Below are positions 3,142 to 31,793 of a stretch of DNA of 32,000 bases, one piece after another; positions within the stretch are counted from its first letter, which is position 1; every line of letters begins with the position of its first letter. The stretch lies in assembly GCA_942493105.1 (NCBI GenBank), contig OW818668.1:930001-962000 (forward strand), given 5' to 3'. This DNA comes from an uncultured Erysipelotrichaceae bacterium (lineage in GTDB: Bacteria > Bacillota_I > Bacilli_A > Erysipelotrichales > Erysipelotrichaceae). A program made the translations under genes and the position numbers. Below the pieces are notes generated by a model. It was not told where the DNA came from. It saw only the letters and a program-made list of their open reading frames with translations, and made no database searches.

Positions 3142-3458
3142 TAGGGTCCCCTTTACTTGTGTCATAAAGAACAACTCATAGTTAAATTTAGTTTAGCACG
3201 CTTATAATAAAACATCAAACAGCTCATTGAAAGATTAAGAGCGTCGATAATAATGTACTCCCTTCTTATATGAACGGGCAAGAGATGGACAACTTTTTGG
3301 ACAGTACGCATCAATAGAAGATGATTTCAAGACTGCAATCAATGATTATCCTCAGTCATTTAAATTAACATCGCTATAACCAATGAAGGGGGATAGAATT
3401 CGGCAGATTGATTTTCAATTAAACAAGGTTATAATAAAAACAAAAGGATAGGCACCCC

Positions 3459-4388: not shown

Positions 4389-4410
4389 AAACCGCAAACG
4401 CGGTTTTTTT
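4388..4410. terminator. Bidirectional rho-independent terminator
   Basis: aaaaccgc-aaac-gcggttttttt hairpin between convergent genes 3459-4388 (+) and 4425-5144 (-). Confidence 0.7.
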
Positions 4411-4424
4411 GAGTCGATGATTCT

Positions 4425-5144
4425 TTAAATCGAAGTACGATAGGCAGCTTGTGTGATACTGAAACGATCTGGTCTATAATAGGTTGACGTAAATTCAAAG
4501 GCAACCCCATTTTTTAAATATGAGATATTTGTGATCTTAAGTAAAGGTTTACCTTCGTTAACATGAAGTAATTTTGCGATCTCACGGGATGCTTCTACAG
4601 CTTCGATTTCTTGATTGGAGTAGGTGATGACTAAGCCTACCTTTTTCTCTAGGTGTTGATAGATGGATCCGTTTAAGATGTCTAGGTTACAATCCCCAAA
4701 GACGGAGGCCAAATAGTATGAGTCTTCAAAGGCATATGGCTCATTGTCTACATTTCTTACCCTTTGGATTTTCCATACTTGTTTATTGACGTTGACTCCT
4801 AATTTCATAGCGACCATGGCACTGGCCTTTTCTTTCTTGAAGTCAATGATGGTATTGGTTACCGTTAATCCACGGCGTGTTGCTTCTTCAGTAAAACATA
4901 AGTAACTTTGCAGATCTTTGAAGTGTGGACGTTGGGATACGAAAGAACCTTTTCCGTGATAGCGATGAAGTAAACCCAATACGACCAACTCATCGATGAC
5001 TTTACGGGCTGTCATACGGGAAACTTCAAATCGTTTTGCTAATTCATTTTCGGATTCGATGGGTTCATCCGGCAGGATTTCTTTTCGATTGATTCGACCT
5101 ACGATATATTCTTTGATTTCTTCATGTTTATTGATTCTGGCCAT
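4425..5144 (-). CDS. GntR-family transcriptional regulator, HutC subfamily (wHTH + UTRA effector domain)
   Basis: The N-terminal block PIESENELAKRFEVSRMTARKVIDELVVLGLLHRYHGKGSFV is the GntR wHTH signature. The ~240-aa length and C-terminal half fit UTRA-type HutC regulators. Confidence 0.85.
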   Translation of the reverse strand: MARINKHEEIKEYIVGRINRKEILPDEPIESENELAKRFEVSRMTARKVIDELVVLGLLHRYHGKGSFVSQRPHFKDLQSYLCFTEEATRRGLTVTNTIIDFKKEKASAMVAMKLGVNVNKQVWKIQRVRNVDNEPYAFEDSYYLASVFGDCNLDILNGSIYQHLEKKVGLVITYSNQEIEAVEASREIAKLLHVNEGKPLLKITNISYLKNGVAFEFTSTYYRPDRFSITQAAYRTSI

Positions 5145-5329
5145 GAGTGCTCACTTTCCTTCTGCCATGCATATTCTATTTACATTGATATATTATATCA
5201 TATCGATACCATGGCATTTTGCTCATTAAGTAACGCTAAAACTCTAAATATGAAGTTGAAATGATGGGACTTTATGACATATATGATTCTTATAAAAAAG
5301 TTAAGGTTAAGATTGAAACCAGCCAAAAC

Positions 5330-5365
5330 AGTTGTATACTTAAGTTGTGGTTATATATACAACTT
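5330..5365. promoter_or_regulatory. Putative GntR/HutC operator (inverted repeats built on TTGTATA / TATACAA)
   Basis: agttgtata (5330-5338) is the reverse complement of tatacaact (5356-5364). A nested pair aagttgt (5342-5348) / acaactt (5359-5365) lies inside. The site is in the divergent intergenic region between the regulator and the ceramidase-like gene. Confidence 0.45.
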
Positions 5366-5479
5366 GGTTTGTTAAATCAATACAAGACAGAATTGGAGGG
5401 CACTTTATCGAAGAATAACTCAAACAAACCCTTACCTATGAATCGTATTTTATGAACAGATGCTTGATTAAGAGTATCT

Positions 5480-6793
5480 GTGAGAAAGGAACTCAAACTC
5501 ATTATGTTAAAAGGATCAAGTAAGAAAGTAAACATCACTCCCCCAATCGGTTTAAGAATGGCGGGCTATGGCGCAAGAAAACATGCTAATGAAGGCATCT
5601 TAAATCAACTGTATGCGAATATTTTGGTTTTAGATGATGAAAACACAAAGGTTGCTTTTGTGACCTTAGATTTGATTGGAGTCGATAAAGCATTGGCTCA
5701 TGAAGTAAGAACGATCGTCAGTGAAAAAACAGATATTCCATATCATTCGATCATGTTGGTTGGATCTCATACGCATTCAGGACCTGAAGCTGCTCGTTTT
5801 GGAGACATGGGTAGATTATCACGTCGTATTGAACCAACACCAATTGATTCAGCTTATAATACCTTGCTTCCGCAATTGATAGCCAATGGGGTTGTTTGGG
5901 CCAATGCGCACTTAGAACCTGTAACCTTCGGGGTTGTTCAAAGTCAGTTACAAGGCTTAGGAAGCAATCGAATCGATCCATCAAGATATGTTGATAATAC
6001 AGTCACCGTATTTAGATTTGATCGTTTAAATGCTGAACCCTTATGTATCATGACTCAATATACCTGTCATCCAACGGTTTTAAATGCTGACAGTTATCTA
6101 TATTCCGGAGACTTTGTATCTTTCTACCAAGAAACGGTTGAGAAAGTATATCAAGGATCTGTTGCAATGTTTATTCAAGGTTGTGCAGGGGATGTCAGTA
6201 CACGTCACAATCGCAAATTTATCAATGTCCCTGAAGTAACACGTATGGGCAGAATGTTGGCTGGCGAAGTCATTAAAGATGTCACTTGGATCGATACAGT
6301 GGCCGATGTTAAGATAAGTGCTGCCATAGAACCTTTAAGATTGGATGTTCGTAAGTTTGCCTCTGATGAAGACTGTGAGTCTAGAATCAATGCTGCACAA
6401 GCAGAATGTGATCGTTTAGTTGCTGAAAATGCACCTGAGCCTTTACAAAGAACAGCCTTTGTAAGCTTAGATGGAGCAAAACGCTATTTAGCCTTTAAGA
6501 AATCCATCGATATCGATCATATTGATATTGAAATGCAAAGAATCAGTATTGGGGATTGGAACATCATCACAACGCCTGGTGAAACCTTTGGTGAAATCGG
6601 TCAACGTATCCGTGAACTAGATCCTCATCGCAAGACTGTCGTTACAGGCTATTCAAATGGTTATGTCGGCTATATCCCAACCAAGGTCACTTATGAAGAT
6701 CCGATGGGTTATGAGATTGCCAGTGCCATCGTCGATGAGCATTCTGAAGACAATATGGTAGAAGCTGCCAAGAAACTGTTGGCCAGTAAATAA
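5480..6793 (+). CDS. Neutral/alkaline ceramidase-like N-terminal-domain hydrolase
   Basis: VNITPPIGLRMAGYGAR near the N-terminus and LVGSHTHSGPEA are signatures I associate with the neutral ceramidase family. The start is uncertain: GTG at 5480 per the track, alternative ATG at 5504 (MLKGSSKK...). Confidence 0.6.
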   Translation: MRKELKLIMLKGSSKKVNITPPIGLRMAGYGARKHANEGILNQLYANILVLDDENTKVAFVTLDLIGVDKALAHEVRTIVSEKTDIPYHSIMLVGSHTHSGPEAARFGDMGRLSRRIEPTPIDSAYNTLLPQLIANGVVWANAHLEPVTFGVVQSQLQGLGSNRIDPSRYVDNTVTVFRFDRLNAEPLCIMTQYTCHPTVLNADSYLYSGDFVSFYQETVEKVYQGSVAMFIQGCAGDVSTRHNRKFINVPEVTRMGRMLAGEVIKDVTWIDTVADVKISAAIEPLRLDVRKFASDEDCESRINAAQAECDRLVAENAPEPLQRTAFVSLDGAKRYLAFKKSIDIDHIDIEMQRISIGDWNIITTPGETFGEIGQRIRELDPHRKTVVTGYSNGYVGYIPTKVTYEDPMGYEIASAIVDEHSEDNMVEAAKKLLASK

Positions 6794-6795
6794 CT

Positions 6796-6829
6796 AAAAA
6801 AAGTGTTCACCTTAGAAGCGAACACTTTT
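6796..6829. terminator. Bidirectional rho-independent terminator
   Basis: aaaaagtgttc-(11-nt loop)-gaacactttt, flanked by A-run and T-run, between convergent genes. Confidence 0.65.
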
Positions 6830-6841
6830 ATTTACATGAGA

Positions 6842-8110
6842 TTAACCGTGTTTGATTGGTTTAGGTAATTTAGGTAGGATGAGTGACATCAATGAAGCAT
6901 ATAGAGACATGACTGCGGCAACTGAGAAGACCACATTCCAACCATAAGTATTGGCCAAATAAGCACCTAAACCTCCGCCTAAGATGGCAGCAAATCCTTT
7001 TGAACTATTAAGGAAACCATTGTTGGCAGCTGAGAAAGTAGAACCAAAAAGGTCAGCATTAAGCGAAGGGAATAAACTGAATAGTTGACCCCATGTAAAC
7101 ATGACCAACATTAAAGCTAATACATAAAGAACCTCACCTTGCGCTCCAACGATCGGTAAGATAAACAAGAATATCGCATTGAGTCCAAAGGATATAAACA
7201 TGGTTTTTGAACGACCTAAACGATCAGAGACCCAACCCCAAAATACACGTCCTATCCCATTGGCAAGACTGGTCATCATGACCGCCAAGACGATGGTTGC
7301 GGGTGAAATCAGCAAACTTTTCCCAAATGCTTTTGAGTTTGCGGTAATGATCAAACCACCGACGTTGACCGCAAAAGCCATGGTCCATATGAGCCAAAAA
7401 TGAGGAGTCCTCAACATCTGTAAAGGATTGAAACTAGGCTTGGCTTGTTTTTGATCCTTTTTCTCATCACCTTTTTTAACAACTGCATTCACAGGATTAC
7501 GTAAGATAAAAGCTGCAAAGATAATAACGATGGCTTGTAGTAATCCGATGATCCCAAAGGCATTGGTTACCCCACTGGTATAAATGATCTTATCGATCAA
7601 AGGTACGAAAGGCATGGATCCTAATCCAAAAGCCCCCGCAATGATCCCTGTCGCCAATCCTCTTTTATCAGGAAACCATTTGATCGATATCCCAACACAA
7701 CCACTGTAGATCACAGCTGCACCAACTCCAGACATTGAATAAAAGAAATATAGGGCTTGTAGCGTTGTCACTCGTCCCATCATGGCCCATCCGATACTGA
7801 CCAATAAACCTGATATCGTAAAGACCAATTTTGATCCGAAACGATCAAAAAGATAGCCTCCAGCAGGCTGTATAAAGGTCTGAAACATCACAAATAAGGT
7901 AAAGGCATATTGGATTGCCACAAGGTTAGAATCAAGTTTATCGACCAAAGGTGTGGTGAAAAGGGTCCACGAATACTGCAGATTTGAAATCATCATCATT
8001 GCTGCAGAAGCAACGATCAACTGTAGCCAACGATTGGTTAAGTTTCTTTCTAGCCAGGATTTGTTTGTGTTGTTTTCCATCTTAATGTCTCCAAGGGTTA
8101 TGTTATTCAT
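6842..8110 (-). CDS. MFS transporter, oxalate/formate antiporter (OFA)-like
   Basis: About 12 hydrophobic segments with a central hydrophilic loop (KKGDEKKDQKQAKPS). The N-terminal RWLQLIVASAAMMMISNLQYSWTLF is typical of OFA-type MFS proteins. The internal ATG at 8080 (MENNTNKSW...) has a ggaga SD and may be the true start. Confidence 0.75.
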   Translation of the reverse strand: MNNITLGDIKMENNTNKSWLERNLTNRWLQLIVASAAMMMISNLQYSWTLFTTPLVDKLDSNLVAIQYAFTLFVMFQTFIQPAGGYLFDRFGSKLVFTISGLLVSIGWAMMGRVTTLQALYFFYSMSGVGAAVIYSGCVGISIKWFPDKRGLATGIIAGAFGLGSMPFVPLIDKIIYTSGVTNAFGIIGLLQAIVIIFAAFILRNPVNAVVKKGDEKKDQKQAKPSFNPLQMLRTPHFWLIWTMAFAVNVGGLIITANSKAFGKSLLISPATIVLAVMMTSLANGIGRVFWGWVSDRLGRSKTMFISFGLNAIFLFILPIVGAQGEVLYVLALMLVMFTWGQLFSLFPSLNADLFGSTFSAANNGFLNSSKGFAAILGGGLGAYLANTYGWNVVFSVAAVMSLYASLMSLILPKLPKPIKHG

Positions 8111-17569: not shown

Positions 17570-18061
17570 CTATTTATTCTTGAATATTTGAATATAACCT
17601 CTAAATAAAATCACAATAGCGGCCAGTATATACAGATAGCGATCATTGGAATATGCATATTGAGTAAAACTCAAATAAACAACAACACCTGCCAATAACA
17701 CATAGAAAGCACCATTAAAGATCTTACTGTTGAGACTGGTGGGTACTTTGAGCTTCACATCAGCCACTTTATAGTTTTTTAGCTTCGTTAATTTATTGAT
17801 GAAAATAAATCGATAATATAATTCTACGATGATGGTCAATCCAACTAGGAAGACAGCATCATAGATCAAATCAAAACCCAAGGCATAAAAGAAAACCGAG
17901 GCTACCAAGACAATAGTGTAGCGATTTCTAAAAAAGAACAAGCTTGTCATTTGATCTAAAGGAATCACATAGGCTGCATTTTCTTTTGGGATAGGTAAGA
18001 TATATCTTCCGTTTTTTTCTTTTATAACGCCCATCGATTCTATTGTTTTAGTGGATATCAT
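17570..18061 (-). CDS. Membrane protein, unknown function
   Basis: 163-aa ORF with a strong SD (gaggtgag) and about four hydrophobic segments. No recognisable motif. Confidence 0.5.
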   Translation of the reverse strand: MISTKTIESMGVIKEKNGRYILPIPKENAAYVIPLDQMTSLFFFRNRYTIVLVASVFFYALGFDLIYDAVFLVGLTIIVELYYRFIFINKLTKLKNYKVADVKLKVPTSLNSKIFNGAFYVLLAGVVVYLSFTQYAYSNDRYLYILAAIVILFRGYIQIFKNK

Positions 18062-18248
18062 AACTCACCTCAGCATTCATTATATCTTAAATATAACCTT
18101 AATTCTATGCATATATATACAAGCGGTGAACTTGATTTTAGTGCTATAATGAGTTCAAAAGAGGATAGTGGGAACAATCATACTTTTAAGCATTTATGAT
18201 CGATCATGATTCAAGTTTTTAAACAATCATGATCAGAAAGGTATTAAA

Positions 18249-18899
18249 ATGCCCCAACCTCTGAATACAAAAAATGTTAATATTGAAGAACCTTTGACGA
18301 TTCATTTTGAATGCGAAAATTGCGGTCATGAGTTTACGCGAGAAGGAAAGATCACTTGTAGTGGAAAAGCACAAAGCAATATTGATGATCAAAATGATCC
18401 TTCTCAACAAGCCCACAATTATGCCTTAGGCAGATTAAGCTTAGCCCATGATCTTTTAGATTCAATGATCTCTGAAGGTATTGTACAAACCAACACAGAT
18501 GAGAAAGACATCACCATCACCATCCATGGAAACAATAAATGTCCCAACTGTGGTTACACTCAAAGAATCATCCCTAAAAAAGTTAATCAAAAGAAAAAGA
18601 AAAAATTTACGACTCAAAGAATGCTGATGTGGACGTGGGGAACCATCTTGCTTACCATGTTTATCTTTACGTATGTTTTCTATACTTACGCTCAACTTAG
18701 AACTTTTTTAAATACCTTTAAACTGGTACCTTTACTTGTTGGGTTACTCTTAGTATTGGTTCCAATTACCTTACTGATGATCAACTACTATTTTAAAGAT
18801 CGAAAGCAAAATAAAAGAGCTAAGAATAGACTTAAAGAGGAAGCTTTACCTACCCCAAAGATGCCTGCAGTAACATTTGGTCAGCAAAAGACATTCTAG
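18249..18899 (+). CDS. Zinc-ribbon membrane protein, unknown function
   Basis: CENCG ... CPNCG cysteine pairs, a poly-Lys tract (KKVNQKKKKK), two C-terminal hydrophobic helices, and a gaaagg SD. Confidence 0.55.
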   Translation: MPQPLNTKNVNIEEPLTIHFECENCGHEFTREGKITCSGKAQSNIDDQNDPSQQAHNYALGRLSLAHDLLDSMISEGIVQTNTDEKDITITIHGNNKCPNCGYTQRIIPKKVNQKKKKKFTTQRMLMWTWGTILLTMFIFTYVFYTYAQLRTFLNTFKLVPLLVGLLLVLVPITLLMINYYFKDRKQNKRAKNRLKEEALPTPKMPAVTFGQQKTF

Positions 18900-19073: not shown

Positions 19074-19421
19074 ATGAACAAATATAAGATGATCGTTTAT
19101 ACAATGAAACAAGGTGACTCCGAGGAATATGTTGCGGAGTATCCTGCTTTAAAAGGGGTTGCTGGAGTTGGATCAAGTCCATTTGAAGCAATCGAAAATT
19201 TAATGGAAAGTGCTGAGGTCAATGTTGCAGCGCTAATTGAAGCAGGTCTTCTTGTTCCAGAAAGTGATTCACAAACAAGAAATGAATACAGCGGCAAACT
19301 ATCTGTACGATTATCAAGTAAGTTACATAGGATGGTTGCGGAGCTTTCGAAACAAGAAGGTGTTAGTATCAATCAATGTATTGTTGAAGCTGTTTCAATG
19401 TATGTAGGCAAGGTATATTAG
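19074..19421 (+). CDS. hicB: HicB-family antitoxin-like protein (HicB fold + C-terminal ribbon-helix-helix)
   Basis: YVAEYPALKGVAGVGSSPFEAIENL is a HicB-type N-terminal domain. GKLSVRLSSKLHRMVAELSKQEGVSINQCIVEAV is an RHH/Arc-like DNA-binding tail. Strong SD. Confidence 0.7.
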   Translation: MNKYKMIVYTMKQGDSEEYVAEYPALKGVAGVGSSPFEAIENLMESAEVNVAALIEAGLLVPESDSQTRNEYSGKLSVRLSSKLHRMVAELSKQEGVSINQCIVEAVSMYVGKVY

Positions 19422-19426
19422 TAGAA

Positions 19427-20311
19427 CTAAATTCCCAACTCATTGAATGTTAAAGACTCTGATATGCGGGTATAGATCCTTTTTTCATGAGTAGATTCAT
19501 GAGAACTGAACTCATAGATGCCGATGAAACGGTATAACCTTCTCCCCAAAACATCTTTACTTCGTGCAAAGGTGATTCGCAAATAATTATCTTGTCTTTC
19601 AAGCCCTTCCATTTCATTTGGATCCAGGCGATACTCTAAGATTTTGTTTCGATTATCAGCTAAAACATTAAGCCAACCATGGCTACCCTGTGATCGCAAC
19701 TCACCTTCTACAGTAGTTGCTAAATTTGGACACCAAATCCAATATTTTCCATTTAATTTGAAATATCCAGATTGTCTTTTAAAACGTACAAGACCAAATC
19801 CATTCGCAATCTCTTCGATGCGTCTAAAACGAATCTCATCTGAAACAGATAAATTTCTCTTCGTTTGTAATAATGTCGATGGGTTTTGATCAAAGTTCCA
19901 TGCTGGAACTTTTGACAGTTGAATAATTGCTTTTAGTTCCGAAACAACAGAATTGATCTGCTGATCTACGTTTTCAAAACTTTGATCCAAATCAATTCTT
20001 CTTAATATAAATTGTTTGGGTTCATCAAGGATTTCGATACTGGTTTGTATATCAAGCTGTCGGATCATATCCAAAGTGATTGTTGTCTTGTGATGAGGTT
20101 CATCGACTTCTAACCCAAAATTGATTTGAGGAAAATACATATCTAGGAGTGCGTAACTACCATTGGTGCGCTTGATGTATTGTTGAGTAACAGGCTTGAT
20201 ATCTAGGTTTCCTAATCTCTGCCAAATCGCATTGACGACATAATTCTCATAGTCTTTCTTTTTAGTTCTAGATAACGTTTTGATTAAGTAGTCGAGTTTT
20301 AGATCAATCAT
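19427..20311 (-). CDS. PvuRts1I/AbaSI-like modification-dependent (5hmC-type) restriction endonuclease, tentative
   Basis: 294 aa. The N-terminal block LLDMYFPQINFGLEVDEPHH (Asp ... E-x-D-E-x-H-H) and the C-terminal RRLYRFIGIYEF match my recollection of this family, which has a Vsr-like nuclease domain plus an SRA-like reader domain and is about 290-320 aa. Not verified by search. Confidence 0.5.
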   Translation of the reverse strand: MIDLKLDYLIKTLSRTKKKDYENYVVNAIWQRLGNLDIKPVTQQYIKRTNGSYALLDMYFPQINFGLEVDEPHHKTTITLDMIRQLDIQTSIEILDEPKQFILRRIDLDQSFENVDQQINSVVSELKAIIQLSKVPAWNFDQNPSTLLQTKRNLSVSDEIRFRRIEEIANGFGLVRFKRQSGYFKLNGKYWIWCPNLATTVEGELRSQGSHGWLNVLADNRNKILEYRLDPNEMEGLERQDNYLRITFARSKDVLGRRLYRFIGIYEFSSHESTHEKRIYTRISESLTFNELGI

Positions 20312-21850: not shown

Positions 21851-22096
21851 TTAGAGTGATAATAAACCAAGTTCTTTAAGTGCTCCTTCTAAAACGATCA
21901 TGGTGAATTTTGTTGGAAGTCAGTTCATTTCAATCATTTCAAATCAACTTGAGGATGTCCAGCAAAAAAACCACTGGGATTCAAATATACTTTATCTACT
22001 ATAAAAGCATCGACTCGTGTTGAACATTGTGTAAAGAGTCTAGCTAAAGTATCTTGCATAGCGAGCGGTTGCCATACAGTACGGGTTCTTACTCAT
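21851..22096 (-). pseudogene. Decayed 5' portion of an acyltransferase-like gene (NeuD/PglD-type N-terminus, tentative), belonging to repeat copy A
   Basis: From the ATG at 22096 it reads MSKN then frameshifts: 1 nt is missing relative to copy B, and TAG sits where B has TAT. Piecing frames together gives ...KTVLYGNRSLCKIL*LDSLHN...VDKVYLNPSGFFAGHPQVD(L)FEMIEMN.LPTKFTMIVLEG. No frame is open. Confidence 0.45.
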
Positions 22097-22147
22097 AAGA
22101 GCTTCCTCTCCAACTTTGGAGATCCTTGTTGATTTTATTATAACTGA
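21985..22147 (-). repeat. Cassette-boundary repeat, copy A
   Basis: The core 22030-22147 (tgtaaagagtc...ccttgttgattttatt.taactga) is near-identical to 25744-25862 and 29174-29290. About 45 nt further left is shared with copy B only. Confidence 0.9.
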
Positions 22148-22269
22148 TAGGGTTAGTAGTTCTAACATTGTTTAATATAAACAAGGAATAATAATGAATT
22201 TAAGTGAAGATTCATGAGGATTTGAAATGGTGTTTTAAGTGGTTTCTTTGAAGACTAAGCATTGATTGT

Positions 22270-22297: not shown

Positions 22298-22817
22298 GGA
22301 TTATAGTAGTCTTTCACATTAAGTACTTACCTGGATTTGATGGCTCTTTTGTGGAAATTATAACGATATACATACTACCCCAGTGTCACTTTGACTGAGA
22401 TATCCTTTTTAACAAGTTTATCGACATAGGTTTATAAGAATCACAACGAAGTTTAAAAGATGTTCTATAGCGATTTTGGGATAAGGATGGAACTTGGCTA
22501 TAGGAGATGTTGTCCCATGTACTGGCACATTTAGCAGGTCATATCAATGTCAATTCAGCCTCTACAAATAGACCATTACGATTGTATAAAAACCTTGACT
22601 CTATAATATAGAAGACTTAGAATTAAAGACAGGCGAAAGCTATATTTCTATACCAATAATGGTTTGTTACTCATTGGTTAGGTGGCTTCAATTGGAATTT
22701 TTAGATTTTGATAATTTTGCGTTCATGAGTGATTTTGGTTTTGGTTTTAAAACGCATATATTTAGAAAATATACATGAGTCGGTAACTATGTTTAACAAC
22801 TAAAAAGGGTGGGAAAA

Positions 22818-23603
22818 ATGCCATATTGTCAAAATTGTGGAAAGTCAGTATCAGGAAACGCAAAGTTTTGCATTGATTGTGGTGTCACTTTAAACCTAAC
22901 AGAAGATAACGCAACTAGAAAACAAGAATTTGTGGGAAAAATATCAAAATGTCCTTCTTGTGGTGCGGGAATACCAAGTTTTACAGCGATGTGTCCGGTC
23001 TGTGGACATGAGATCAATTCTGCTCGTGTAACATCATCTATTAAGGATTTTGCAGAAAAGATGATTCAATGTGACTTAGAAATTGCTAATAGCCCTGTCA
23101 AACTTAAAAAAGGATGGAGCTCGTGGGGAAAATGGGGAAAAATCGGATGGGTTTTTCTTAACATTTCCACATTTGGAGGACCTGTAATTATTCCTTACAT
23201 ATTCAAATCATTTGGTGTTGGTGGGATTCCTACATTGACTGCAGCAGAAATGAAAAAGCTTACAATGATAGATAACTTTGCTTTCCCAAATGATCGAGAG
23301 AGTATTCTTGAAGCGCTTTTATTTATCAAATCTCAAGTATCATCACTTTCGTCTGGAAAAGTTGATCGAAGTACACAACGATGGATAGGAATCTGGAAAA
23401 ACAAAGCAGACCAGCTTTTTCAAAAAGCAGACATCATGTTTAAGGGTGACAAGATTGCTATAGATGCATATGATGTCATTGTTGAAATAGAGAAGAAAGT
23501 TAAAAAATCGCTTGGCAAAAAAAGAATTATAGGAATTGTCCTAATAATTATATTCGTCATTATAATACTTTCATACTATGCTACAAGAGAACCTTCAGTT
23601 TAA
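22818..23603 (+). CDS. Double zinc-ribbon membrane protein (YdjG-like architecture)
   Basis: MPYCQNCGKSVSGNAKFCIDCG and KCPSCGAGIPSFTAMCPVCGHEI are two CxxC...CxxC ribbons. Hydrophobic segments are GWVFLNISTFGGPVIIPYIF and the C-terminal IIGIVLIIIFVIIILSYY. The ATG at 22818 follows aagggtggg; the track ORF starts at GTG 22809. Confidence 0.65.
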   Translation: MPYCQNCGKSVSGNAKFCIDCGVTLNLTEDNATRKQEFVGKISKCPSCGAGIPSFTAMCPVCGHEINSARVTSSIKDFAEKMIQCDLEIANSPVKLKKGWSSWGKWGKIGWVFLNISTFGGPVIIPYIFKSFGVGGIPTLTAAEMKKLTMIDNFAFPNDRESILEALLFIKSQVSSLSSGKVDRSTQRWIGIWKNKADQLFQKADIMFKGDKIAIDAYDVIVEIEKKVKKSLGKKRIIGIVLIIIFVIIILSYYATREPSV

Positions 23604-23731
23604 TTCACATCAACAAACGATTGAAATCCATCATTGATGTGAGGCTTGAATAAGGTTAAAAAGCTGAACTTATTTTTGGGACAACATAAGTTTTAACAGG
23701 TAGAAATACCAGTGAAAAGGGAGGTCTAAAT

Positions 23732-25096
23732 ATGGGATTATTTGGTAAACAGAAGGCAGGTGGATTTATGGATGAAATTCGATGTGATGAACCCTCATAC
23801 TTGATTTGGAAATGGCATCCAACCGGTTCTCAACAAGGATCAAATAATAGAGAGAATGCAATAAGGTGGGGTTCTAGTCTACGTGTAAAAGATGGAGAAG
23901 CGGCTGTGTTTGTATATAATCAGAAAGATGATACGATGCAAGATTTCATCGTAGGTCCGCATGATCAGATACTGAAGACAGACAATCTACCGATCTTGGC
24001 CAGTATTGTAGGGTTGGCTTATAAGGGCGGTACTCCGTTTCAAGCTGAAGTCTATTTCATTAACTTAGCAAAAGTGATTCAAGTTCCGTTTGCGGTTCCT
24101 TTCTTTGATTTATATGACCCAAGATTCTTGGACTTTGGAATACCAACCGCTGTAAGAGGAAGAATAACATTTAATATTGCAAACTACAGAGAATTTATTA
24201 AACTACACAGACTTTCCAATTTTGACTTAAATTCATTCCAGATTCAAATACGTGATGCTGTCGCAAGATATGTTAAGGGCATTGTTACAAATGCACCATC
24301 AGAAAACAATATTCCCGTTGTACAGATCGAGCGTGAAATTCTAAAAATTAATGAGTTAGTTGAAGAAAATATTAAAGAACGATTTGAAAGAGACTTTGGT
24401 GTGAATATTACTTCTGTGGATATTACCGCTATTGAAGTAGATAAATCTAGTGTTGGTTATCATCAGTTAAAGAGTGTGACACAAGATGTTGCCTCAGCAA
24501 CTGTAAAAGCCCAAGCAGAAGTAAACATTAAGAATCTGCACGATACACAAAGAATTAATGCCGTGAATTTAGAAGAAACGATGCGTATTCAAAGAGAAGA
24601 AGCACAATATGCTCAAAGAAAGCAGTCAGAAACCTCCAATTTTGCAGCTTATCAACTTGAAAAACAAGTAGAGTTTGGTATTGCTGGTGCGGATGCATTG
24701 GGTCAGATGGGCGCAAATGGTGCCACTGAAATATCTGGCGGTGGAGGAATGAACCCGGTAGGTTTGATGACTGGAATGGCAATGGGCGGAGCTATAGGTC
24801 AAAATATGGCAGGTATGATGAATAATATGATGGGCGGAGCAAAACAAGCAGATCCTGAACTGACACCACCTCCTGTTATTGCTTCTGTGTATTATGTCGC
24901 TGTTAATGGTCAAGCAACCGGTCCATATGATATCCGTACGTTAGCTCAGATGGCAACAGTCGGGACATTTTTAAAGACAAGTTTGGTATGGAAACAAGGA
25001 ATGACAAATTGGATTTCTGCAGACACTGTCCAAGAGTTGCAATTGGTCTTTGGCAGTGAACCTTCCTCTATACCTCCAGTTCCACCAACGATTTAA
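23732..25096 (+). CDS. SPFH/Band-7 (YdjI-like, virion-core-protein-like) protein with Gly/Met-rich linker and C-terminal GYF_2 (DUF4339) domain
   Basis: The N-terminus MGLFGK...FMDEIRCDEPSYLIWKWHP and the following ~270 aa resemble B. subtilis YdjI-type SPFH proteins. The low-complexity linker is GGGGMNPVGLMTGMAMGGAIGQNMAGMMNNMMGG. The C-terminal VYYVAVNGQATGPYDIRTLAQMATVGTFLKTSLVWKQGMTNWISADTVQEL is a GYF_2 pattern. Strong SD (aagggagg). Confidence 0.7.
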   Translation: MGLFGKQKAGGFMDEIRCDEPSYLIWKWHPTGSQQGSNNRENAIRWGSSLRVKDGEAAVFVYNQKDDTMQDFIVGPHDQILKTDNLPILASIVGLAYKGGTPFQAEVYFINLAKVIQVPFAVPFFDLYDPRFLDFGIPTAVRGRITFNIANYREFIKLHRLSNFDLNSFQIQIRDAVARYVKGIVTNAPSENNIPVVQIEREILKINELVEENIKERFERDFGVNITSVDITAIEVDKSSVGYHQLKSVTQDVASATVKAQAEVNIKNLHDTQRINAVNLEETMRIQREEAQYAQRKQSETSNFAAYQLEKQVEFGIAGADALGQMGANGATEISGGGGMNPVGLMTGMAMGGAIGQNMAGMMNNMMGGAKQADPELTPPPVIASVYYVAVNGQATGPYDIRTLAQMATVGTFLKTSLVWKQGMTNWISADTVQELQLVFGSEPSSIPPVPPTI

Positions 25097-25109
25097 AGGA
25101 GTCGTTACA

Positions 25110-25460
25110 ATGAGCGATAATAATTTCTACTCAATGGATAAACTTATTGAATTTGGTATGAGTATTTCGATTGCCAGCCAAATGGCACAGTCAATGAATC
25201 GAACGATAAACCAAATGACTATTCCAGGCTCATCTAATGCTATGCTTACTCAAATAGAAACAGTTTATTATGCTGTGATAAATGGTAAGCAAGCAGGACC
25301 TTATTCATTAACTGAGTTGTCAAGATTGATTAAAGATAAGATCATTTTAAAGGAAACTTATATCTGGAAACCTGGCATGGTTCAATGGGATCTTGTAGAA
25401 AATGTTGATGTGTTATTAAGACTTGTGGCAGTAACTCCACCACCGATACCTAACCTTTAG
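25110..25460 (+). CDS. Small GYF_2 (DUF4339) domain protein
   Basis: The ATG at 25110 (MSDNNFYSM...) follows an aaaggag SD, 13 nt after the previous stop. The C-terminal VYYAVINGKQAGPYSLTELSRLIKDKIILKETYIWKPGMVQWDLVENV repeats the GYF_2 pattern. The track ORF begins further upstream, at 25050. Confidence 0.65.
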   Translation: MSDNNFYSMDKLIEFGMSISIASQMAQSMNRTINQMTIPGSSNAMLTQIETVYYAVINGKQAGPYSLTELSRLIKDKIILKETYIWKPGMVQWDLVENVDVLLRLVAVTPPPIPNL

Positions 25461-25474
25461 TAGGTGTTTGAAAC

Positions 25475-25503
25475 AACCTGCAACACTTTATTGCAGGTTT
25501 TTT
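25475..25503 (+). terminator. Rho-independent terminator closing cassette 1
   Basis: aacctgcaa-cacttta-ttgcaggtt followed by ttttt. Confidence 0.75.
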
Positions 25504-25695
25504 GTAGTCGCAATCAAGCATTTCTGTCTAAAAATAAACTAAAAACGATAAATTTACTGAGAAGTTTGCATAACGTTATATTTCATCAAATCATTTTTAA
25601 TGAATTTTCTCGATGATACCCACATTTGAATAGGTCGACTTTTTTATCGTCACAATGTGAAAGTTGTATGTGTAAAAATAAAAGACTATTCCACC

Positions 25696-25862
25696 TAATA
25701 CACTTTATCTACGACAAAAGCAACGACCTCGATTTGATCATTGTGTAAAGAGTCCAGATAAAGCATCTTGCATAGCGAGCGGTTGCCATACAGTACGGTT
25801 TTCTTACTCATAAGAGCTTCCTCTCCAACTTTGGAGATCCTTGTTGATTTTATTTTAACTGA
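25696..25862 (-). repeat. Cassette-boundary repeat, copy B (contains a 38-codon relic ORF at 25695-25811)
   Basis: On the minus strand: SD ggagagg, then ATG, then MSKKTVLYGNRSLCKMLYLDSLHNDQIEVVAFVVDKVY*. Near-identical to copies A and C. Confidence 0.9.
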
Positions 25863-26206
25863 AAGACTAAAGGAAACTCAAAAACCCATTCTCAAAAATG
25901 CATGATTATATTTTTGGTTTCATGTAATAAAAAATCGTAACTGAATAAATATCTATAAAGCGTGGTTAATAAGCGAAGTATTGCATTATACGTTAATGTT
26001 TAAAAATTCTGCAGATGTATCTAAACTCAACCAAAAACTTGATTAAGTATGCTTTTTACTGATATCATAAATATACGAGAATTGTTTAATTTAAATGACT
26101 GAATACTATCTTATGTAGATCAAAAAACTCGTATCTATACAATCAATGCTTATTAAATTGAGAAAATTGTATACATTCAGTTTGTTAAATATTGTGGGGT
26201 AATACA

Positions 26207-28378
26207 ATGGTTAGGAAAGAGCCGATTTATTATCATTTGATCTTTGGGTCACTTCAGTGTAAAGAGACTTTTGGGGTTGATCTTTTATATGGTGACTACG
26301 AGTATATTATCAACCTCAATTCATCACTAATTAGTAAACTTTATTTTGAGAATTACAGTGAAGTAAAAACATATTATTGCAGTGAACTAATCAATAAATC
26401 AGAATATGAAGAACTAACACTTCTGGAATACACATTTCATAATAAAAAAGCTTTTGATTTATTACACAATCTAGCAGAAAGGCTACTTTTTCGTAATGAG
26501 GTTCAATATCTGTTTCTATGTATCGATTGCTTGTGGGTTATTGATAAATTACTAGGTTTTTATGATTTAGTTGATGAGTCTGTGTACTTAACTGTCAACT
26601 CTCGTTTAAAAAATGAGTATGATGTAGATCTTAGGTTCCACTATGCACTAACTTTTACAAGATATAAATATTTAAACGAAATGATTGCGATCGAAACAAG
26701 AAAAAAATTCAAAATTGAAAAGCTTATTCGTACTGCAATTACCACCATCGCTATCGCACATTCAATAGCAGAAGCGTTTAGACCGAATTTATACAAAATT
26801 GGGTTTCGTATTCTTGAACAAATCGATACAATTGAACTTCAAAAAATAGTTAATGAGGATAATCTGAAAACGATTATTAACGAAATATTACAATCTACTG
26901 TTTCGATCAATGAAGATGCTTTAAATTTTTATGTAACAAGACGGCTAAGTTTGAAACTAGATATGACGTTAGGTAAAAACCTCCCAAACAAAATCAAGAT
27001 TAACTACATTCAAGATAACTTAGATTTTGTATCAGCTTTAATTAAAGGCAAGATTCCTCAATCTTTTATTGCATTACAAAAAATCCTTGAAATTCTTGAA
27101 AATGACAGAATTGAGGACTTAGGTGAGAAATATAAATATCATAATTTTAATATAGGATCTTTGGTAATATATTTATTAAAGATTGATAATAGTTACACCA
27201 TTATAAGACTCTTTACAGTTCTTAAAATAATTGAGTTTGACCAGATGTATAAAGTCTGGGATCAATCAATAGGGTCAAATTATCTTGATCTATGTTATAA
27301 CTATTTAATATACAAATCAAAGACCGAAAAACACTTTAAATTAAGTAAGAATGATAAAACGTGGTTGCTATGCCTTTTAAAAGCGTTAAGGAGCGAAAAT
27401 GATTTGACTCAACCAGTTGATAGAATAGTTTTTTTGTTTAATAATATTGACTTCCTTTCCATTGATATGGAGACCATTATAGAAATATGCAAACATATTT
27501 ATGACACTGAAAAATATAAATCAACACACGATAGTATTCAATTGGCGCTAGAAGCTAGACAGTATGAACTTGTCAAATACCTAGATGCAAATAGGGAAGT
27601 AATTGATTTACTTGTTTCTAAATTCAATATTGAAAAACTTAATAAAACCAAACGATTTGTGATTATGAGACAACTTGAAAAGAATTGTGAGAGATACTTT
27701 TCTCAAATTCAAGATAGTCCTTTGGGCTATAAGATAATTGTTGCTCGAAATGCGAATGATATTCAAAAACATCAGCGTACATGTTTGTATATTGATCAGA
27801 TAAAATACATGATGAGAGAGCTAAAGGTTAGAAATATCACAGATCTTTTCCATTTCACACCAATTGATAATCTTGCGAGTATTCTTGAAAAAGGAATTAT
27901 ACCCAGAAGTTATCACAGACAACTAAAAGTTCGGTCTATTTGTACAGATTCTGAACGTTATGATCATAGATTGGAATACACTAGTTTATCAATAATGAGG
28001 CCGAATAGTAGAATGCTTTACTATAAGAGGGCTGAAAAGATTATAGTGATTTTAAGGATTGATGCTCAGATTTTGCTTAATGTAACGAACCATCCGTTAT
28101 TCTTTCAAGAAAATGCTTCTCGTTTGATATATAAAGAAAAGCCCTCAAAAGATTTTATGAATGTATCAAAATTCACAAGTTTGTTTCCAACACCGGAATC
28201 AAATATAACGTTGAGTGACCAAGCAGAGATTTTATTACCTGATATTATAGACAAGAGGTATATCAAAGAGATTATTTTTTTCACGAATTCAGATCTCCAA
28301 TTTGTGTTGAGTCATATTAAGCAAGAAAGTTTGAATGGGATAAATTTACTTATCAAGGAGGTAAGAAATGGCATCTAG
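26207..28378 (+). CDS. Large fusion protein: ~545-aa uncharacterised helical N-terminal region + C-terminal DarT-like (DUF4433) ADP-ribosyltransferase domain
   Basis: The C-terminal block (nt ~27835-28378) reads LFHFTPIDNLASILEKGIIP (compare DarT H-x-T...NL..IL), YTSLSIMRPNSRMLYY, PLFFQENAS and SDQAEILLPDII (the ARTT-type QAE glutamate, codon 28226-28228). The ATG at 26207 follows a gtggggt SD; the track ORF starts at TTG 26192. Confidence 0.65.
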   Translation: MVRKEPIYYHLIFGSLQCKETFGVDLLYGDYEYIINLNSSLISKLYFENYSEVKTYYCSELINKSEYEELTLLEYTFHNKKAFDLLHNLAERLLFRNEVQYLFLCIDCLWVIDKLLGFYDLVDESVYLTVNSRLKNEYDVDLRFHYALTFTRYKYLNEMIAIETRKKFKIEKLIRTAITTIAIAHSIAEAFRPNLYKIGFRILEQIDTIELQKIVNEDNLKTIINEILQSTVSINEDALNFYVTRRLSLKLDMTLGKNLPNKIKINYIQDNLDFVSALIKGKIPQSFIALQKILEILENDRIEDLGEKYKYHNFNIGSLVIYLLKIDNSYTIIRLFTVLKIIEFDQMYKVWDQSIGSNYLDLCYNYLIYKSKTEKHFKLSKNDKTWLLCLLKALRSENDLTQPVDRIVFLFNNIDFLSIDMETIIEICKHIYDTEKYKSTHDSIQLALEARQYELVKYLDANREVIDLLVSKFNIEKLNKTKRFVIMRQLEKNCERYFSQIQDSPLGYKIIVARNANDIQKHQRTCLYIDQIKYMMRELKVRNITDLFHFTPIDNLASILEKGIIPRSYHRQLKVRSICTDSERYDHRLEYTSLSIMRPNSRMLYYKRAEKIIVILRIDAQILLNVTNHPLFFQENASRLIYKEKPSKDFMNVSKFTSLFPTPESNITLSDQAEILLPDIIDKRYIKEIIFFTNSDLQFVLSHIKQESLNGINLLIKEVRNGI

Positions 28379-29036
28379 ACCAGTATTTGTAGCAGCCTCA
28401 TTTAAAGAACCAATTCAAGAGGTACAAACAAGTTTCACATTCTTCAGTGGCTTTTCACTAGACCAAAAGAGAAAATCAATACAATCACTACACAATTCTT
28501 ATCTTGAGAATAATCCCAATAAGAGGATCTTAGAGATATCAACAAAATCACCCGATGAATTAGGAAGAAAACTGAGTGCTTTTAATTTGTGTGTTCAAGT
28601 AAATCAGAGAATCCTTCCGCTTGAGTGCGTGTTTCAATCGTCAAAAATTTTTGAGAATGGCGGACCTTATTCTGAACTTATGTATCTTGATCCGGTTTCT
28701 GCGAAAAAGGATATGAGACTTAGAAACTCAGGCAGGTTGGTCAGTTTCAGATTTGATAACAAGGTTTTTCCCCTTGAACCAAAATCATACTTTTATGACT
28801 GTTTATATATAGAAGCAGTTCTCAACTCAACGAGTTTAGTTGATGAATTAATGTGCTATGACGCATTTACGGATATAGAGTTTAATCCCAAAAAATCATA
28901 TAATTGCCAAGCGAGATCTGCAGCCCTTTTCGTCACATTGTACAAAACAAATGAATTGAACAAATTCTTGAATGATATAGATTTTGCAAAGAAATTTTAC
29001 GATAAGGAGAACTTTCAGACATCACTCAACTTATAG
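28368..29036 (+). CDS. Candidate cognate antitoxin/reversal enzyme: 222-aa protein with a NADAR (DUF1768)-like core motif, tentative
   Basis: The ATG overlaps the upstream stop by 11 nt and has a perfect SD (aaggaggt). KLSAFNLCVQVNQRILPLECVFQSSKIF parallels the YbiA-type NADAR block FSNF-x(14-17)-SEHYFQAQKF. No macrodomain motifs are present. Confidence 0.35.
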   Translation: MASRPVFVAASFKEPIQEVQTSFTFFSGFSLDQKRKSIQSLHNSYLENNPNKRILEISTKSPDELGRKLSAFNLCVQVNQRILPLECVFQSSKIFENGGPYSELMYLDPVSAKKDMRLRNSGRLVSFRFDNKVFPLEPKSYFYDCLYIEAVLNSTSLVDELMCYDAFTDIEFNPKKSYNCQARSAALFVTLYKTNELNKFLNDIDFAKKFYDKENFQTSLNL

Positions 29037-29173
29037 TTTTAGAATTAAACTTAACACAGTTGCTTATAGAAATTTAAATAGAATGTTATAACACTTTAGA
29101 AGGTTTTCAAATTTACTATCATAATTTGGATCATCAATGCCTATTAATTAGTAATGATCTCAACTAATTTTAA

Positions 29174-29290
29174 TGTAAAGAGTCCAGATAAGGCGTCTTG
29201 CATAGTGAGCGGTTGACATACAGTACGGTTTTCTTACACATAAGAGTTGCTCTCCAACATTGGAGATCCTTGTTGATTTTTTATAGCTGA
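29174..29290 (-). repeat. Cassette-boundary repeat, copy C (contains a 23-codon relic ORF at 29170-29241)
   Basis: On the minus strand: SD ggagagc, then ATG, then MCKKTVLYVNRSLCKTPYLDSLH*. This is the shortest copy; homology starts at tgtaaagag. Confidence 0.9.
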
Positions 29291-29379: not shown

Positions 29380-29694
29380 ATGAAAGAAACAAAAGATAAA
29401 GTCATTAAGTTCACACATGATCGTGATTGGGATCAATTTCACTCACCTGAAAACTTAGCTAAATCAATCTCAATTGAAGCAGCTGAACTTTTAGAGTGCT
29501 TCCAATGGAACAATGACTTCAAAAAAGAAGAAGTTATTGATGAGTTGGCTGATATTGTCAATTACTGCATCCTCTTATCTGATAAGCTAGATGTTGATCT
29601 GGAAGATATTGTTTTAAGCAAACTTAAGAAGAATGAAGAAAAGTATCCAATAGAAAAATCAAAAGGGAAAAGCGACAAATATAATAAGTTGTAA
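29380..29694 (+). CDS. MazG-like all-alpha nucleoside-triphosphate pyrophosphohydrolase (DCTPP1/RS21-C6-like)
   Basis: FTHDRDWDQFHSPENLAKSISIEAAELLECFQW ... DELADIVNYCILL matches the R.W.QFH.P.NL....E..EL.E.FQW / E.AD signature of the dCTP-pyrophosphatase-type MazG family. 104 aa. Confidence 0.75.
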   Translation: MKETKDKVIKFTHDRDWDQFHSPENLAKSISIEAAELLECFQWNNDFKKEEVIDELADIVNYCILLSDKLDVDLEDIVLSKLKKNEEKYPIEKSKGKSDKYNKL

Positions 29695-29708
29695 AAGGGG
29701 GATTTCTT

Positions 29709-31385
29709 TTGGAGACCAAACTGTTTAATTTTACAGATGATGTCTTAACTAAAATAAGCGACACTGATTTTGCTGAGAAATGGCCAGTCGTTTATTTTAT
29801 TCATAATGAAAATGAAGCGTATATTGGAGAAACCACCAATATCTTAATTAGAGTTTTACAGCACAGAAAAAATCCAGAACGCAAAGAATTGAAAAAGATT
29901 TTAGTTATTACCGATAAAATGTTTAATAAATCAGCAATTATGGATATTGAGTCGCAACTTATTAAATACATAGCAGCTGATGGAAAATTCAAACTACAAA
30001 ATTTGAATTCTGGACTCCAAAATCATAATTATTACCAAAAGGATACTTATGAGAAAATATTTCGTGATTTATGGAAACATCTAAAGAAAGAGCATCTTGC
30101 GGTTTTTGATATTCAACAAATTGAAAACTCTGATCTATTCAAATATTCACCATATAAGTCATTAACAACAGATCAATATTTTACAGTAGACCTAATTCTG
30201 GATGATTTAGCAAGAAACTTTGATCAGAAAACCACAACAATTGTCAATGGTGGAGCTGGAACTGGGAAGACAGTTTTAGCAGTTTATCTCATTAAGTTGT
30301 TAAAAACTTATGATAATGTGTCACAGATCTTTGATGATGAGTTTGAAGAAGATTATGTTAAAAACATTGTTGAAATTCTTAGACAGAAACAAAACCTCAA
30401 AATTGCACTTGTCGTACCGATGACATCACTTAGGAAGACACTGAAGAAAGTGTTTAGGGGTGTAAAGGGCTTATCGGCCAGTATGGTTATTGGACCAAAT
30501 GATGTGTCTAGAGACGATTATGATATTTTGATCGTTGATGAAGCTCATCGACTAAGAAGAAGACTTAATATTACAAATTACGCAGCTTTCGATAAAATCA
30601 ATGCTGAATTAGGGTTTGGAAACGAAGGAACAGAACTAGATTGGATTATGGCTAAAAGTAAACACCAGATTTTGTTTTATGATTCAGCTCAAACAATTCG
30701 ACCAGCAGATATTAGGGAAAGTCAGTTTAGTAATTTGTATAACCAAAATGATCTGTTTAAACAGTACGATCTGACTTCTCAGATGAGAAGTATGGGTGGG
30801 CAAGATTATATTAATTACGTTAAGCAAATGTTTGCTTGTAACCCTAATCTGCAGAGAATTGTATTTGAAAATTATGAATTCAGAATCTTTGATAATGTAA
30901 AAGATATGTATGACGAAATCAAAAAGAAAGATAGCGAAGTTGGATTATCTAGAATGGTTGCTGGATATGGTTGGGAATGGATTTCAAAAGGTAAATCATT
31001 AGAGTCAATTGTGAACAATGATCTATTCGATATCAGAATTCAAGGTCAGAAGTTTATTTGGAATACCACCAATAAAGACTGGGTTAACTCAAAAAATGCA
31101 TTAAATGAAATTGGGTGTATTCATACTACTCAGGGATATGATTTGAACTATGTTGGTATTATCATAGGAAATGAACTTACTTTTGATCCAATAGCGAATC
31201 AAATGGTGATAGATAAAGAACACTACTATGATCGAAATGGATTGACTAACATCGAAAACTATCAAGAATTGAAAGATTACATACTAAATATCTATTCAAC
31301 TCTATTCCTTCGCGGAATAAAGGGGACATATGTTTATGTTTGTCACAAAGATTTGAGGGAGTATTTAAGGAAATTCCTTGGATAA
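29709..31385 (+). CDS. GIY-YIG nuclease domain + DUF2075 (Schlafen-type) P-loop ATPase/helicase-like protein
   Basis: N-terminal VVYFIHNENEAYIGETTNILIRVLQH...IESQLI is a GIY-YIG pattern. Walker A is GGAGTGKT (nt 30249-30272) and Walker B is ILIVDEAHRL. TTG start 7 nt after aaaggggg, 14 nt after the MazG stop. Confidence 0.7.
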   Translation: METKLFNFTDDVLTKISDTDFAEKWPVVYFIHNENEAYIGETTNILIRVLQHRKNPERKELKKILVITDKMFNKSAIMDIESQLIKYIAADGKFKLQNLNSGLQNHNYYQKDTYEKIFRDLWKHLKKEHLAVFDIQQIENSDLFKYSPYKSLTTDQYFTVDLILDDLARNFDQKTTTIVNGGAGTGKTVLAVYLIKLLKTYDNVSQIFDDEFEEDYVKNIVEILRQKQNLKIALVVPMTSLRKTLKKVFRGVKGLSASMVIGPNDVSRDDYDILIVDEAHRLRRRLNITNYAAFDKINAELGFGNEGTELDWIMAKSKHQILFYDSAQTIRPADIRESQFSNLYNQNDLFKQYDLTSQMRSMGGQDYINYVKQMFACNPNLQRIVFENYEFRIFDNVKDMYDEIKKKDSEVGLSRMVAGYGWEWISKGKSLESIVNNDLFDIRIQGQKFIWNTTNKDWVNSKNALNEIGCIHTTQGYDLNYVGIIIGNELTFDPIANQMVIDKEHYYDRNGLTNIENYQELKDYILNIYSTLFLRGIKGTYVYVCHKDLREYLRKFLG

Positions 31386-31793
31386 ATGTTTGAAAGGTTA
31401 AATATGGAAACAATCAAAGTAGTGGCTGCCTTAATTAAGGATGCAGATAAATATCTCATTGGATTAAGGTCAACTGGTAAGTACAAAGGATTTTGGGAAT
31501 TCCCTGGGGGAAAAATTGAGGAGAATGAAGAACTCGAAGATGCATTAATGCGTGAGATTTATGAAGAGTTTGAAATCAATATAAGTATAGAAAAACTTCT
31601 TTTCAAAATCGAATACACTTATCCAGAGTTTATTCTTGAGATGTATTGTTTCTTGACTACCTCTTTAGACAAAGAATTTGTATTAAATGACCATAGTGAA
31701 ACAATGTGGTTTGACCCTAAAAACGATATCGAGATCAATTGGTTACCAGCGGATCTCAAAATTGTTGAATTATTGAAATGTGCTAATTTTTAG
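31386..31793 (+). CDS. Nudix hydrolase, MutT/NudG-like (deoxy)nucleoside-triphosphate pyrophosphohydrolase
   Basis: Nudix box GGKIEENEELEDALMREIYEEFEI (GX5EX7REUXEEXGU). The ATG abuts the upstream TAA. An alternative ATG at 31404 (METIKVV...) has a gaaagg SD. Confidence 0.8.
   Translation: MFERLNMETIKVVAALIKDADKYLIGLRSTGKYKGFWEFPGGKIEENEELEDALMREIYEEFEINISIEKLLFKIEYTYPEFILEMYCFLTTSLDKEFVLNDHSETMWFDPKNDIEINWLPADLKIVELLKCANF

Follow-up and report, generated by a model that had tools for sequence, protein, structure and literature searches.

In Bacillus subtilis, the soluble Band_7 protein YdjI needs both YdjG and YdjH to reach the membrane and organise PspA (Scholz et al. 2021, PMC8581546), while YdjG itself combines two zinc ribbons with an NTF2-like/YpeB-related domain and a transmembrane (TM) segment (Ravi et al. 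2024, PMC11237479). Together, YdjG, YdjH and YdjI form a stress module that recruits PspA and alters membrane fluidity (PMC8581546; PMC11237479). Here we analyse a locus of similar outline, an operon of three genes that we call A, B and C, in a 32,000-nt stretch of DNA from an uncultured Erysipelotrichaceae bacterium (GenBank assembly GCA_942493105.1, contig OW818668.1, positions 930,001 to 962,000; hereafter the window, in whose coordinates positions are given). Gene A encodes a zinc-ribbon membrane protein, gene B an SPFH protein with a GYF domain, and gene C a small GYF protein. SPFH proteins are universal membrane organisers, and the A+B pair is abundant, made up of two core genes, unstudied, and sited where new defence systems are usually found.

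The GYF domains also have described counterparts. That of GltJ binds a proline-rich sequence via its beta-sheet with micromolar affinity (Attia et al. 2024, PMC11135422), and a zinc ribbon lies next to the domain in approximately 44% of bacterial GYF proteins (PMC11135422). The SPFH/Band 7+GYF architecture was catalogued in 2007 with a planctomycete example and no function, in a paper that also noted proline-rich stretches beside bacterial GYF domains and links to TM proteins (Balaji and Aravind, PMC2034487). In the literature, we found no report on the function of an A+B pair, and nothing relevant linking SPFH proteins to anti-phage defence, defence islands, bacterial immunity or mobile-element conflict; searches for COG4260 or 'virion core protein' returned poxvirus papers only.

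Genes A and B form the conserved unit

To place the operon among its relatives, 85 loci were fetched and their open reading frames (ORFs) called with a simple longest-ORF caller; counts refer to the 77 distinct loci with full-length B. A gene encoding a double zinc ribbon lies directly upstream of B in 77 of the 77 (76 by clustering, and one further locus, L081, by Pfam), at a median gap of 17 nt. Two such genes are found upstream in 12 of the 77 loci, and another one downstream in 12. Gene C is present in just 10 of the 77, all in the clade nearest to the window, and it is the A+B pair that is conserved as a unit, rather than the trio initially proposed as a module. Adjacency of A and B in 77 independent loci means that the arrangement is not due to chance, and a physical partnership between the two proteins is further supported by a natural, Rosetta-stone fusion of 595 residues (P0236), in which three N-terminal zinc ribbons precede the full SPFH, coiled-coil, Gly/Met-rich and GYF series.

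Relatives of B occur in 495 species-level genomes and, grouped at 90% identity, make up more than 8000 clusters. The family is nevertheless compact: at 50% identity, just 196 clusters score E ≤ 1e-30. B is 59-83% identical across Bacillota, Actinomycetota and one Treponema, three phyla in which its occurrence is patchy. Its hosts are mostly gut or rumen anaerobes and include Clostridia, Bacilli, Streptococcus, Coriobacteriia, Gardnerella, Actinomyces and a Treponema. Such a patchy spread at this level of identity indicates horizontal transfer under strong purifying selection.

Predicted domain organisation of A, B and C

In the window, A (22818-23603), B (23732-25096) and C (25110-25460) are co-oriented on the + strand and constitute a single terminator-closed operon. 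Gene B encodes a 454-residue soluble SPFH-GYF protein, characterised through Pfam, an alignment of 34 homologues, AlphaFold2 (AF2) and Foldseek. It matches Band_7_1 (PF13421) at residues 40-237 (E = 7.2e-19; 68.7 bits, the cutoff being 24) and GYF_2 (PF14237) at residues 387-436 (E = 1.2e-15), and on these profile matches is a bona fide Band_7_1 and GYF_2 protein. YdjI is presumably placed in the same Pfam family, Band_7_1. The SPFH region of B (1-237) is followed by a long helix (241-326), a Gly/Met-rich helix with a GxxxGxxxG pattern (336-369), a PPP motif (379-381), the GYF_2 domain and a PPVP tail (448-451); there is no TM segment, no membrane anchor of its own and no CxxC pair. Glycines 348, 352 and 356 are invariant in the 34-sequence alignment, PPP precedes the GYF domain in 78 of 82 B proteins, and the PPxP tail is present in 69 of the 82.

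The AF2 model of B derives from a shallow alignment and is of low confidence in residues 1-113 and the linker, and was used for the SPFH core, long helix and GYF domain only. By Foldseek, it matches stomatin, prohibitin, flotillin, HflK/C and QmcA (E = 5e-6 to 2e-3, probability 1.0), the matching part being the SPFH core and the 85-residue helix. The GYF domain matches that of GltJ (PDB 7z3c) both by sequence profile (E = 3.2e-7) and by fold.

Gene A encodes a 261-residue double-zinc-ribbon adaptor, recognised from Pfam matches (DZR, E = 3.4e-8; Zn_Ribbon_1, E = 9.7e-9), from four CxxC pairs (residues 4-7, 18-21, 45-48 and 59-62) and from its AF2 model. Two zinc ribbons (3-22 and 44-65) precede a hydrophobic helix-turn-helix (105-131, its hairpin at 110-129), which in the model is too short to cross the bilayer twice, a helical bundle (142-207) and a TM segment (237-255). 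Mean predicted local distance difference test score (pLDDT) is 76 for the whole protein and approximately 90 for the three-helix bundle, with both ribbons poorly ordered; an amphipathic helix is also present. The bundle carries the FPNDRESILEALLF motif, drawn from conserved columns of the homologue alignment, and the near-invariant FPNDRESILEAL motif, and has no counterpart in the PDB (Foldseek, no significant fold match, best E = 0.58). The C-terminus is a long helix whose final 19 residues form the TM segment, with KKVKKSLGKKR just before it. We infer a tail-anchored, N-in/C-out topology from the model, which is consistent with longer homologues having DUF6591 repeats or BspA-type leucine-rich repeats (LRRs) C-terminal to the TM segment.

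Judged from its homologues, A diverges fast: across the 77 loci they range from 210 to 790 residues and share a median of 27% identity with A of the window, the corresponding median for B being 63%. Most also carry a variable domain predicted to be extracellular, and these ectodomains swap among homologues (DUF6591 x2, BspA-type LRR and others). Pfam identified no protease domain in A, and no NfeD domain in A or in ten long A variants. In four loci (L003, L060, L070 and L075), A homologues bear an additional domain of approximately 120 residues, with no Pfam match, N-terminal to the ribbons, which we would guess from its sequence pattern to be PH/GRAM-like; the L003 homologue (438 residues) has no TM segment at all. 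These two features suggest that A may have more than one route to the membrane.

Gene C encodes a 116-residue mini-GYF protein made up of a Met-rich helix (15-36), a GYF_2 domain (53-100; Pfam, E = 1.2e-13) and a PPPIP motif (110-114). It aligns by BLASTP with residues 351-451 of B (32% identity, E = 4e-14), and is by this comparison a free-standing paralogue of the B tail. All 13 of its homologues terminate in a PPP or PPxP motif. A second optional gene, encoding a 70-100-residue HTH_26 protein, stands ahead of A in 36 of the 77 loci; at these frequencies, neither it nor C is a core component. Separately, a small protein with no Pfam match (cluster c9, ~120-160 residues) is encoded inside the module in approximately seven loci, including L017, L034, L043, L045, L046 and L053, either between the HTH gene and A or past B/C, and may be another accessory component.

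Scans for NCBIfam and PHROGs profiles in A, B and C gave nothing informative, with no PHROG for B or C.

Gene A starts at the ATG at 22818, with the ribosome-binding site GGGTGGG ahead of it, and gene C at the ATG at 25110, 13 nt past the TAA of B and preceded by AAAGGAG; the TTG at 25050, which would lengthen the C ORF, is an unlikely start. An intrinsic terminator follows on the + strand (25475-25506), composed of a 9-bp stem with four GC pairs (25475-25499), a 7-nt loop and the run TTTTTGT. Terminator-like sites numbered five by scan, where 1.6 were expected. Approximately 195 nt 5' of gene A, a consensus scan gave a weak promoter-like site on the + strand (22595-22623; TTGACT-17 nt-TAGAAT, 10 of 12 matches); such sites are no more numerous than expected from shuffling. 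The first-pass annotation had described three co-oriented genes closed by a terminator, which encode a membrane protein with two CxxC ribbons, an SPFH protein with a Gly/Met-rich linker and GYF_2 domain, and a 116-residue GYF_2 protein starting 13 nt after B, and each of these descriptions stands.

The module keeps company with integrases and defence genes

The Pfam content of the 253 nearest neighbours of the module is extremely heterogeneous. Commonest are Phage_integrase, Resolvase/Recombinase, TnpV, Mob_Pre, rumA-type methyltransferases, AAA_21/AAA_15, Abi_2, ResIII and HicB. Searching the same genes with PADLOC revealed strong matches to GajA (E = 5e-191), PtuA (2.5e-120) and mREase_IV (1e-233), and further strong ones to AbiLi, AbiD, PDC-S01/S22, REase_I, Cas3 and LmuB. 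In Bacillus sp. FJAT-27445, for example, the module is flanked by GmrSD and a Gabija-like pair; in Neobacillus, a PLD nuclease, DUF5677 and DUF6946 lie upstream, as do ResIII/RE and HD genes in L003. In one widely recovered metagenomic lineage (170 collection blocks), the module immediately follows rumA, and its island includes a restriction-modification system as well.

No pspA gene was found within approximately 10 kb in any of the 85 loci. PspA is likewise missing from the neighbour Pfam families listed for the 253 nearest genes and from the window, and a phmmer search of 1836 ORFs with an E. coli PspA query gave no match. This agrees with the earlier description of the cassette as lacking pspA, and the possibility raised with it, that relatives carry the genes as a housekeeping operon beside pspA, is not what these loci show.

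The module was detected in one of 50,697 phage records and in three of 2.9 million IMG/VR contigs, and 72,556 plasmid records yielded distant SPFH matches only; on this near-absence, a phage or plasmid origin was rejected. The module travels with integrases and defence genes and is horizontally mobile.

A-B-C is a strain-variable cassette in the window

Upstream of A-B-C, the window contains genes for a HicB-like protein, a type IV restriction enzyme (PvuRts1I/SRA) and a tryptophanase; downstream are a DarT-NADAR pair, and then genes for a MazG-like protein, a GIY-YIG/SLFN-type helicase and a NUDIX protein (PDC-S07). A repeat of 120-170 nt occurs three times and parts successive cassettes: A-B-C, DarT-NADAR, and MazG/helicase/NUDIX. 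Using direct-repeat families D1-D3 and alignments, copy 1 was placed on the - strand at 21984-22153, where it comprises the degenerate 5' part of a gene for a hexapeptide acetyltransferase together with the region upstream of that gene. Homology to the intact acetyltransferase gene reaches 21815, matching positions 7428-7770 of a relative's contig, L099. Copy 2 (25697-25868, - strand) lies between the A-B-C terminator and the DarT gene, is 91-97% identical to copy 1 and 89% identical to L099 7429-7586, and encodes MSKKTVLYGNRSLCKMLYLDSLHNDQIEVVAFVVDKVY*; copy 3 is at ~29150-29290. The repeat corresponds to the 5' end and upstream region, hairpin TCTCCAAAGTTGGAGA included, of the acetyltransferase gene that is intact in L099 (7480-8151). 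There is no recombinase near the repeats in the window, and their position between cassettes suggests that cassettes were gained serially, through recombination at this junction. The boundary repeat had no match in JGI metagenomes.

Contigs of relatives (L097, L098 and L099) were located through their tryptophanase homologues, and A-B-C is missing at the locus in two related strains. In L099, whose tryptophanase is 89% identical, the order is tryptophanase, GT2, BKACE and hexapeptide acetyltransferase, which is divergent from MazG-like, helicase and NUDIX genes. By comparison with L099, GT2 and BKACE are lost from the window along with most of the acetyltransferase gene, and approximately 7 kb, comprising A-B-C, copy 2 and DarT-NADAR, is gained between repeat copies 1 and 3. 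L097 and L098, whose tryptophanase is 96% identical, instead have two large helicases and a DprA-like gene on this side of the tryptophanase gene. On these comparisons, A-B-C is a cassette that varies between strains, within a hotspot where defence genes are exchanged. The original description of a cassette inside a defence island is borne out here by its absence from two related strains, the bracket of ~160-nt repeats, and the PvuRts1I-like, DarT-NADAR and MazG/DUF2075/NUDIX neighbours.

Several neighbouring genes merit a description of their own. The DarT gene (26192-28378) encodes 728 residues, unusually long for a DarT1-type toxin, with the DarT domain confined to residues ~550-716 and no Pfam or PDB match in the N-terminal ~550; it overlaps the NADAR-DarT1 antitoxin gene (28368-29036). 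The conserved trio at 29380-31793, also present in L099, encodes a MazG-like protein (104 residues), a GIY-YIG + SLFN-g3/DUF2075 helicase (558 residues) and a NUDIX protein (135 residues; PADLOC PDC-S07, E = 9e-41). At 19074-20311, no HicA ORF is detectable beside the HicB-like antitoxin gene, which is followed on the opposite strand by the PvuRts1I-N + SRA type IV restriction enzyme, in place of which L097 and L098 have a gene for 146 residues. A second zinc-ribbon and TM protein (18249-18899, 216 residues) has no BLAST homology to A and is conserved in L097; its gene adjoins an unannotated gene for 163 residues on the other strand (17570-18899 for the region). In L097, the closest relative, positions 365-7097, where the window has its cassettes, hold an AAA_11/AAA_12 + DUF2726 helicase (1015 residues), a DEAD/ResIII helicase (823 residues) and the DprA-like gene, which may be another defence module in the same hotspot.

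Discussion

We propose that A and B form a mobile, PspA-independent SPFH membrane-scaffold module, carried as cargo of defence hotspots and integrative elements. The company that the module keeps favours a role in envelope-level defence or exclusion, which we hold tentatively, as the likeliest role but at somewhat less than an even chance. Under this proposal, A would dock B onto the inner membrane face, and B would assemble into a ring or cage by oligomerising via the SPFH domain and the long helix, like the solved SPFH complexes that it matches. The GYF domains would bind the proline-rich motifs that flank nearly every GYF domain of the family, producing cross-linking or auto-inhibition, and the Gly/Met-rich glycine-zipper helix of B would pack with or insert into the bilayer. 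C could act as a decoy copy of the B tail, competing for its contacts and tuning assembly, and the variable ectodomain of A could serve as a sensor. The host or the element would be protected against incoming phage or foreign DNA by exclusion or by abortive membrane perturbation.

Several observations weigh against this proposal. B is unusually conserved for a conflict protein, and PADLOC-DB v2.0.0 (2023) contains no match for A, B or C at E ≤ 0.01. Cas1, a type I S subunit, SspH and type IIG enzymes were also present in a distal control of 126 genes from these loci, at distances above 6.5 kb, and what we claim is therefore co-location with defence genes and not enrichment. Of the count suggested in the first-pass annotation, A and B co-occur in 77 of 77 loci and strong defence matches are found among the nearest neighbours; defence genes are found in this control too. 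In addition, just 50 of 82 B proteins match a strict GxxxGxxxG expression, the quality of the AF2 model of B is low (pLDDT 58, and below 50 for residues 1-113), and C and the HTH gene are dispensable, such that the regulation sketched above is not valid for all loci.

The strongest competing explanation is that A and B are an envelope-stress or membrane-maintenance accessory, in which A-B stabilises or fluidises the membrane, maybe feeding PspA or another ESCRT-III-like protein encoded elsewhere, and provides tolerance to bile, antimicrobial peptides or bacteriocins with no role against phage. The closest characterised analogue, YdjG/H/I, is precisely such a stress module recruiting PspA (PMC8581546; PMC11237479). 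Scoring of B in Band_7_1, its high conservation, as for a structural scaffold, and the predominance of gut and rumen anaerobes among its hosts all fit this explanation as well. However, none of the 85 loci has pspA nearby, a YdjH/TPM partner is missing, the module varies between strains and accompanies integrases and defence genes rather than envelope genes, and the variable A ectodomains suggest recognition of diverse external ligands. We consider a pure stress function a serious possibility, if on balance an unlikely one. Should the module not defend cells, A+B would still represent a PspA-free branch of YdjG/YdjI-type stress machinery, spread among gut bacteria by mobile elements.

A more specific version of the defence proposal would make A+B a new class of immunity against phages and mobile genetic elements. 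A would sense an event at the envelope, for instance the adsorption of a phage or the entry of DNA, through either its fast-evolving ectodomain or its cytoplasmic ribbons, and would release GYF-proline auto-inhibition in a membrane-docked B ring, whose glycine zippers would seal or permeabilise the affected patch while the C decoy restrains B; the outcome could be exclusion or abortive infection. Plant HIR-type SPFH proteins act in immune cell death, and A+B would be their prokaryotic counterpart. This detailed scheme we judge to be unlikely as it stands.

A further rival is a selfish function, in which the module would be an entry or surface exclusion or maintenance device for the integrative elements that carry it, for instance by blocking a second related element at the membrane. 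At many loci, the module indeed forms the terminal part of a small integrative element and adjoins rumA (often directly upstream), TnpV, Mob_Pre and serine or tyrosine recombinases, and often has its own HTH_26 regulator ahead of it. Nevertheless, no integrase or mobilisation gene lies alongside it in the window or in L001-L003, and the 72,556 plasmid records gave distant SPFH matches only, which makes this function doubtful in our view. Lastly, the fold match of B to the HflK/C-FtsH and QmcA-YbbJ complexes might suggest a quality-control cage enclosing a membrane protease or client encoded elsewhere, with A as client or adaptor, but this is highly improbable, as none of the loci has a linked protease or NfeD gene, A has neither domain, and B lacks the N-terminal TM segment of HflK/C.

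Returning to envelope-level defence, A+B is a credible and experimentally tractable candidate for a new mechanism of this kind, on the genomic evidence assembled here. If the module does defend cells, prokaryotic immunity would gain a membrane-scaffold mechanism, and bacterial GYF-proline signalling a tractable model.

Comparison with known systems

The domain combination of B is the same as that recorded by Balaji and Aravind in 2007, who gave no operon partner, mobility, context or function for it. Myxococcus GltJ resembles the present proteins in that a bacterial GYF_2 domain works together with a zinc ribbon on the cytoplasmic side of a membrane protein. In GltJ, however, both belong to one polypeptide of a gliding-motility machine, whereas here they are split between A and B/C, the GYF domain is fused to SPFH, and no motility genes lie near the module.

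With the cage-forming SPFH complexes (stomatin, prohibitin, flotillin, HflK/C-FtsH and QmcA-YbbJ), B shares the SPFH core and the long helix. It differs in having no N-terminal TM segment or hairpin and no linked NfeD or protease partner; NfeD, the partner in the SPFH-NfeD operons QmcA-YbbJ and YqiK-YqiJ, is not among the neighbour families listed. The Gly/Met-rich and GYF tail is peculiar to the B family when set against these complexes.

The closest parallel remains the B. subtilis PspA-YdjG-YdjH-YdjI system, which likewise has an anchorless soluble SPFH protein which has a low-complexity region as well as a small C-terminal adaptor domain, encoded downstream of a gene for a membrane protein that starts with two zinc ribbons. 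To this extent, the initial description of the module as YdjG/YdjI-like is sound, since a soluble Band_7_1 protein does have a two-ribbon membrane partner. Beyond this, the likeness fails: pspA is missing, and A and B are directly adjacent, with no YdjH/TPM gene between them (TPM_phosphatase does not appear in the list of the 25 commonest neighbour families). Where YdjI has its C-terminal zinc finger, B has GYF_2, and while YdjG by published description has an NTF2-like/YpeB-related domain, the body of A is modelled as an all-helical bundle with a tail anchor and no PDB match. Furthermore, ydj is a chromosomal stress operon, whereas A+B is mobile, strain-variable and found in the context of defence genes and mobile elements. 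A+B is not a member of the YdjGHI-PspA system, which it resembles in logic only.

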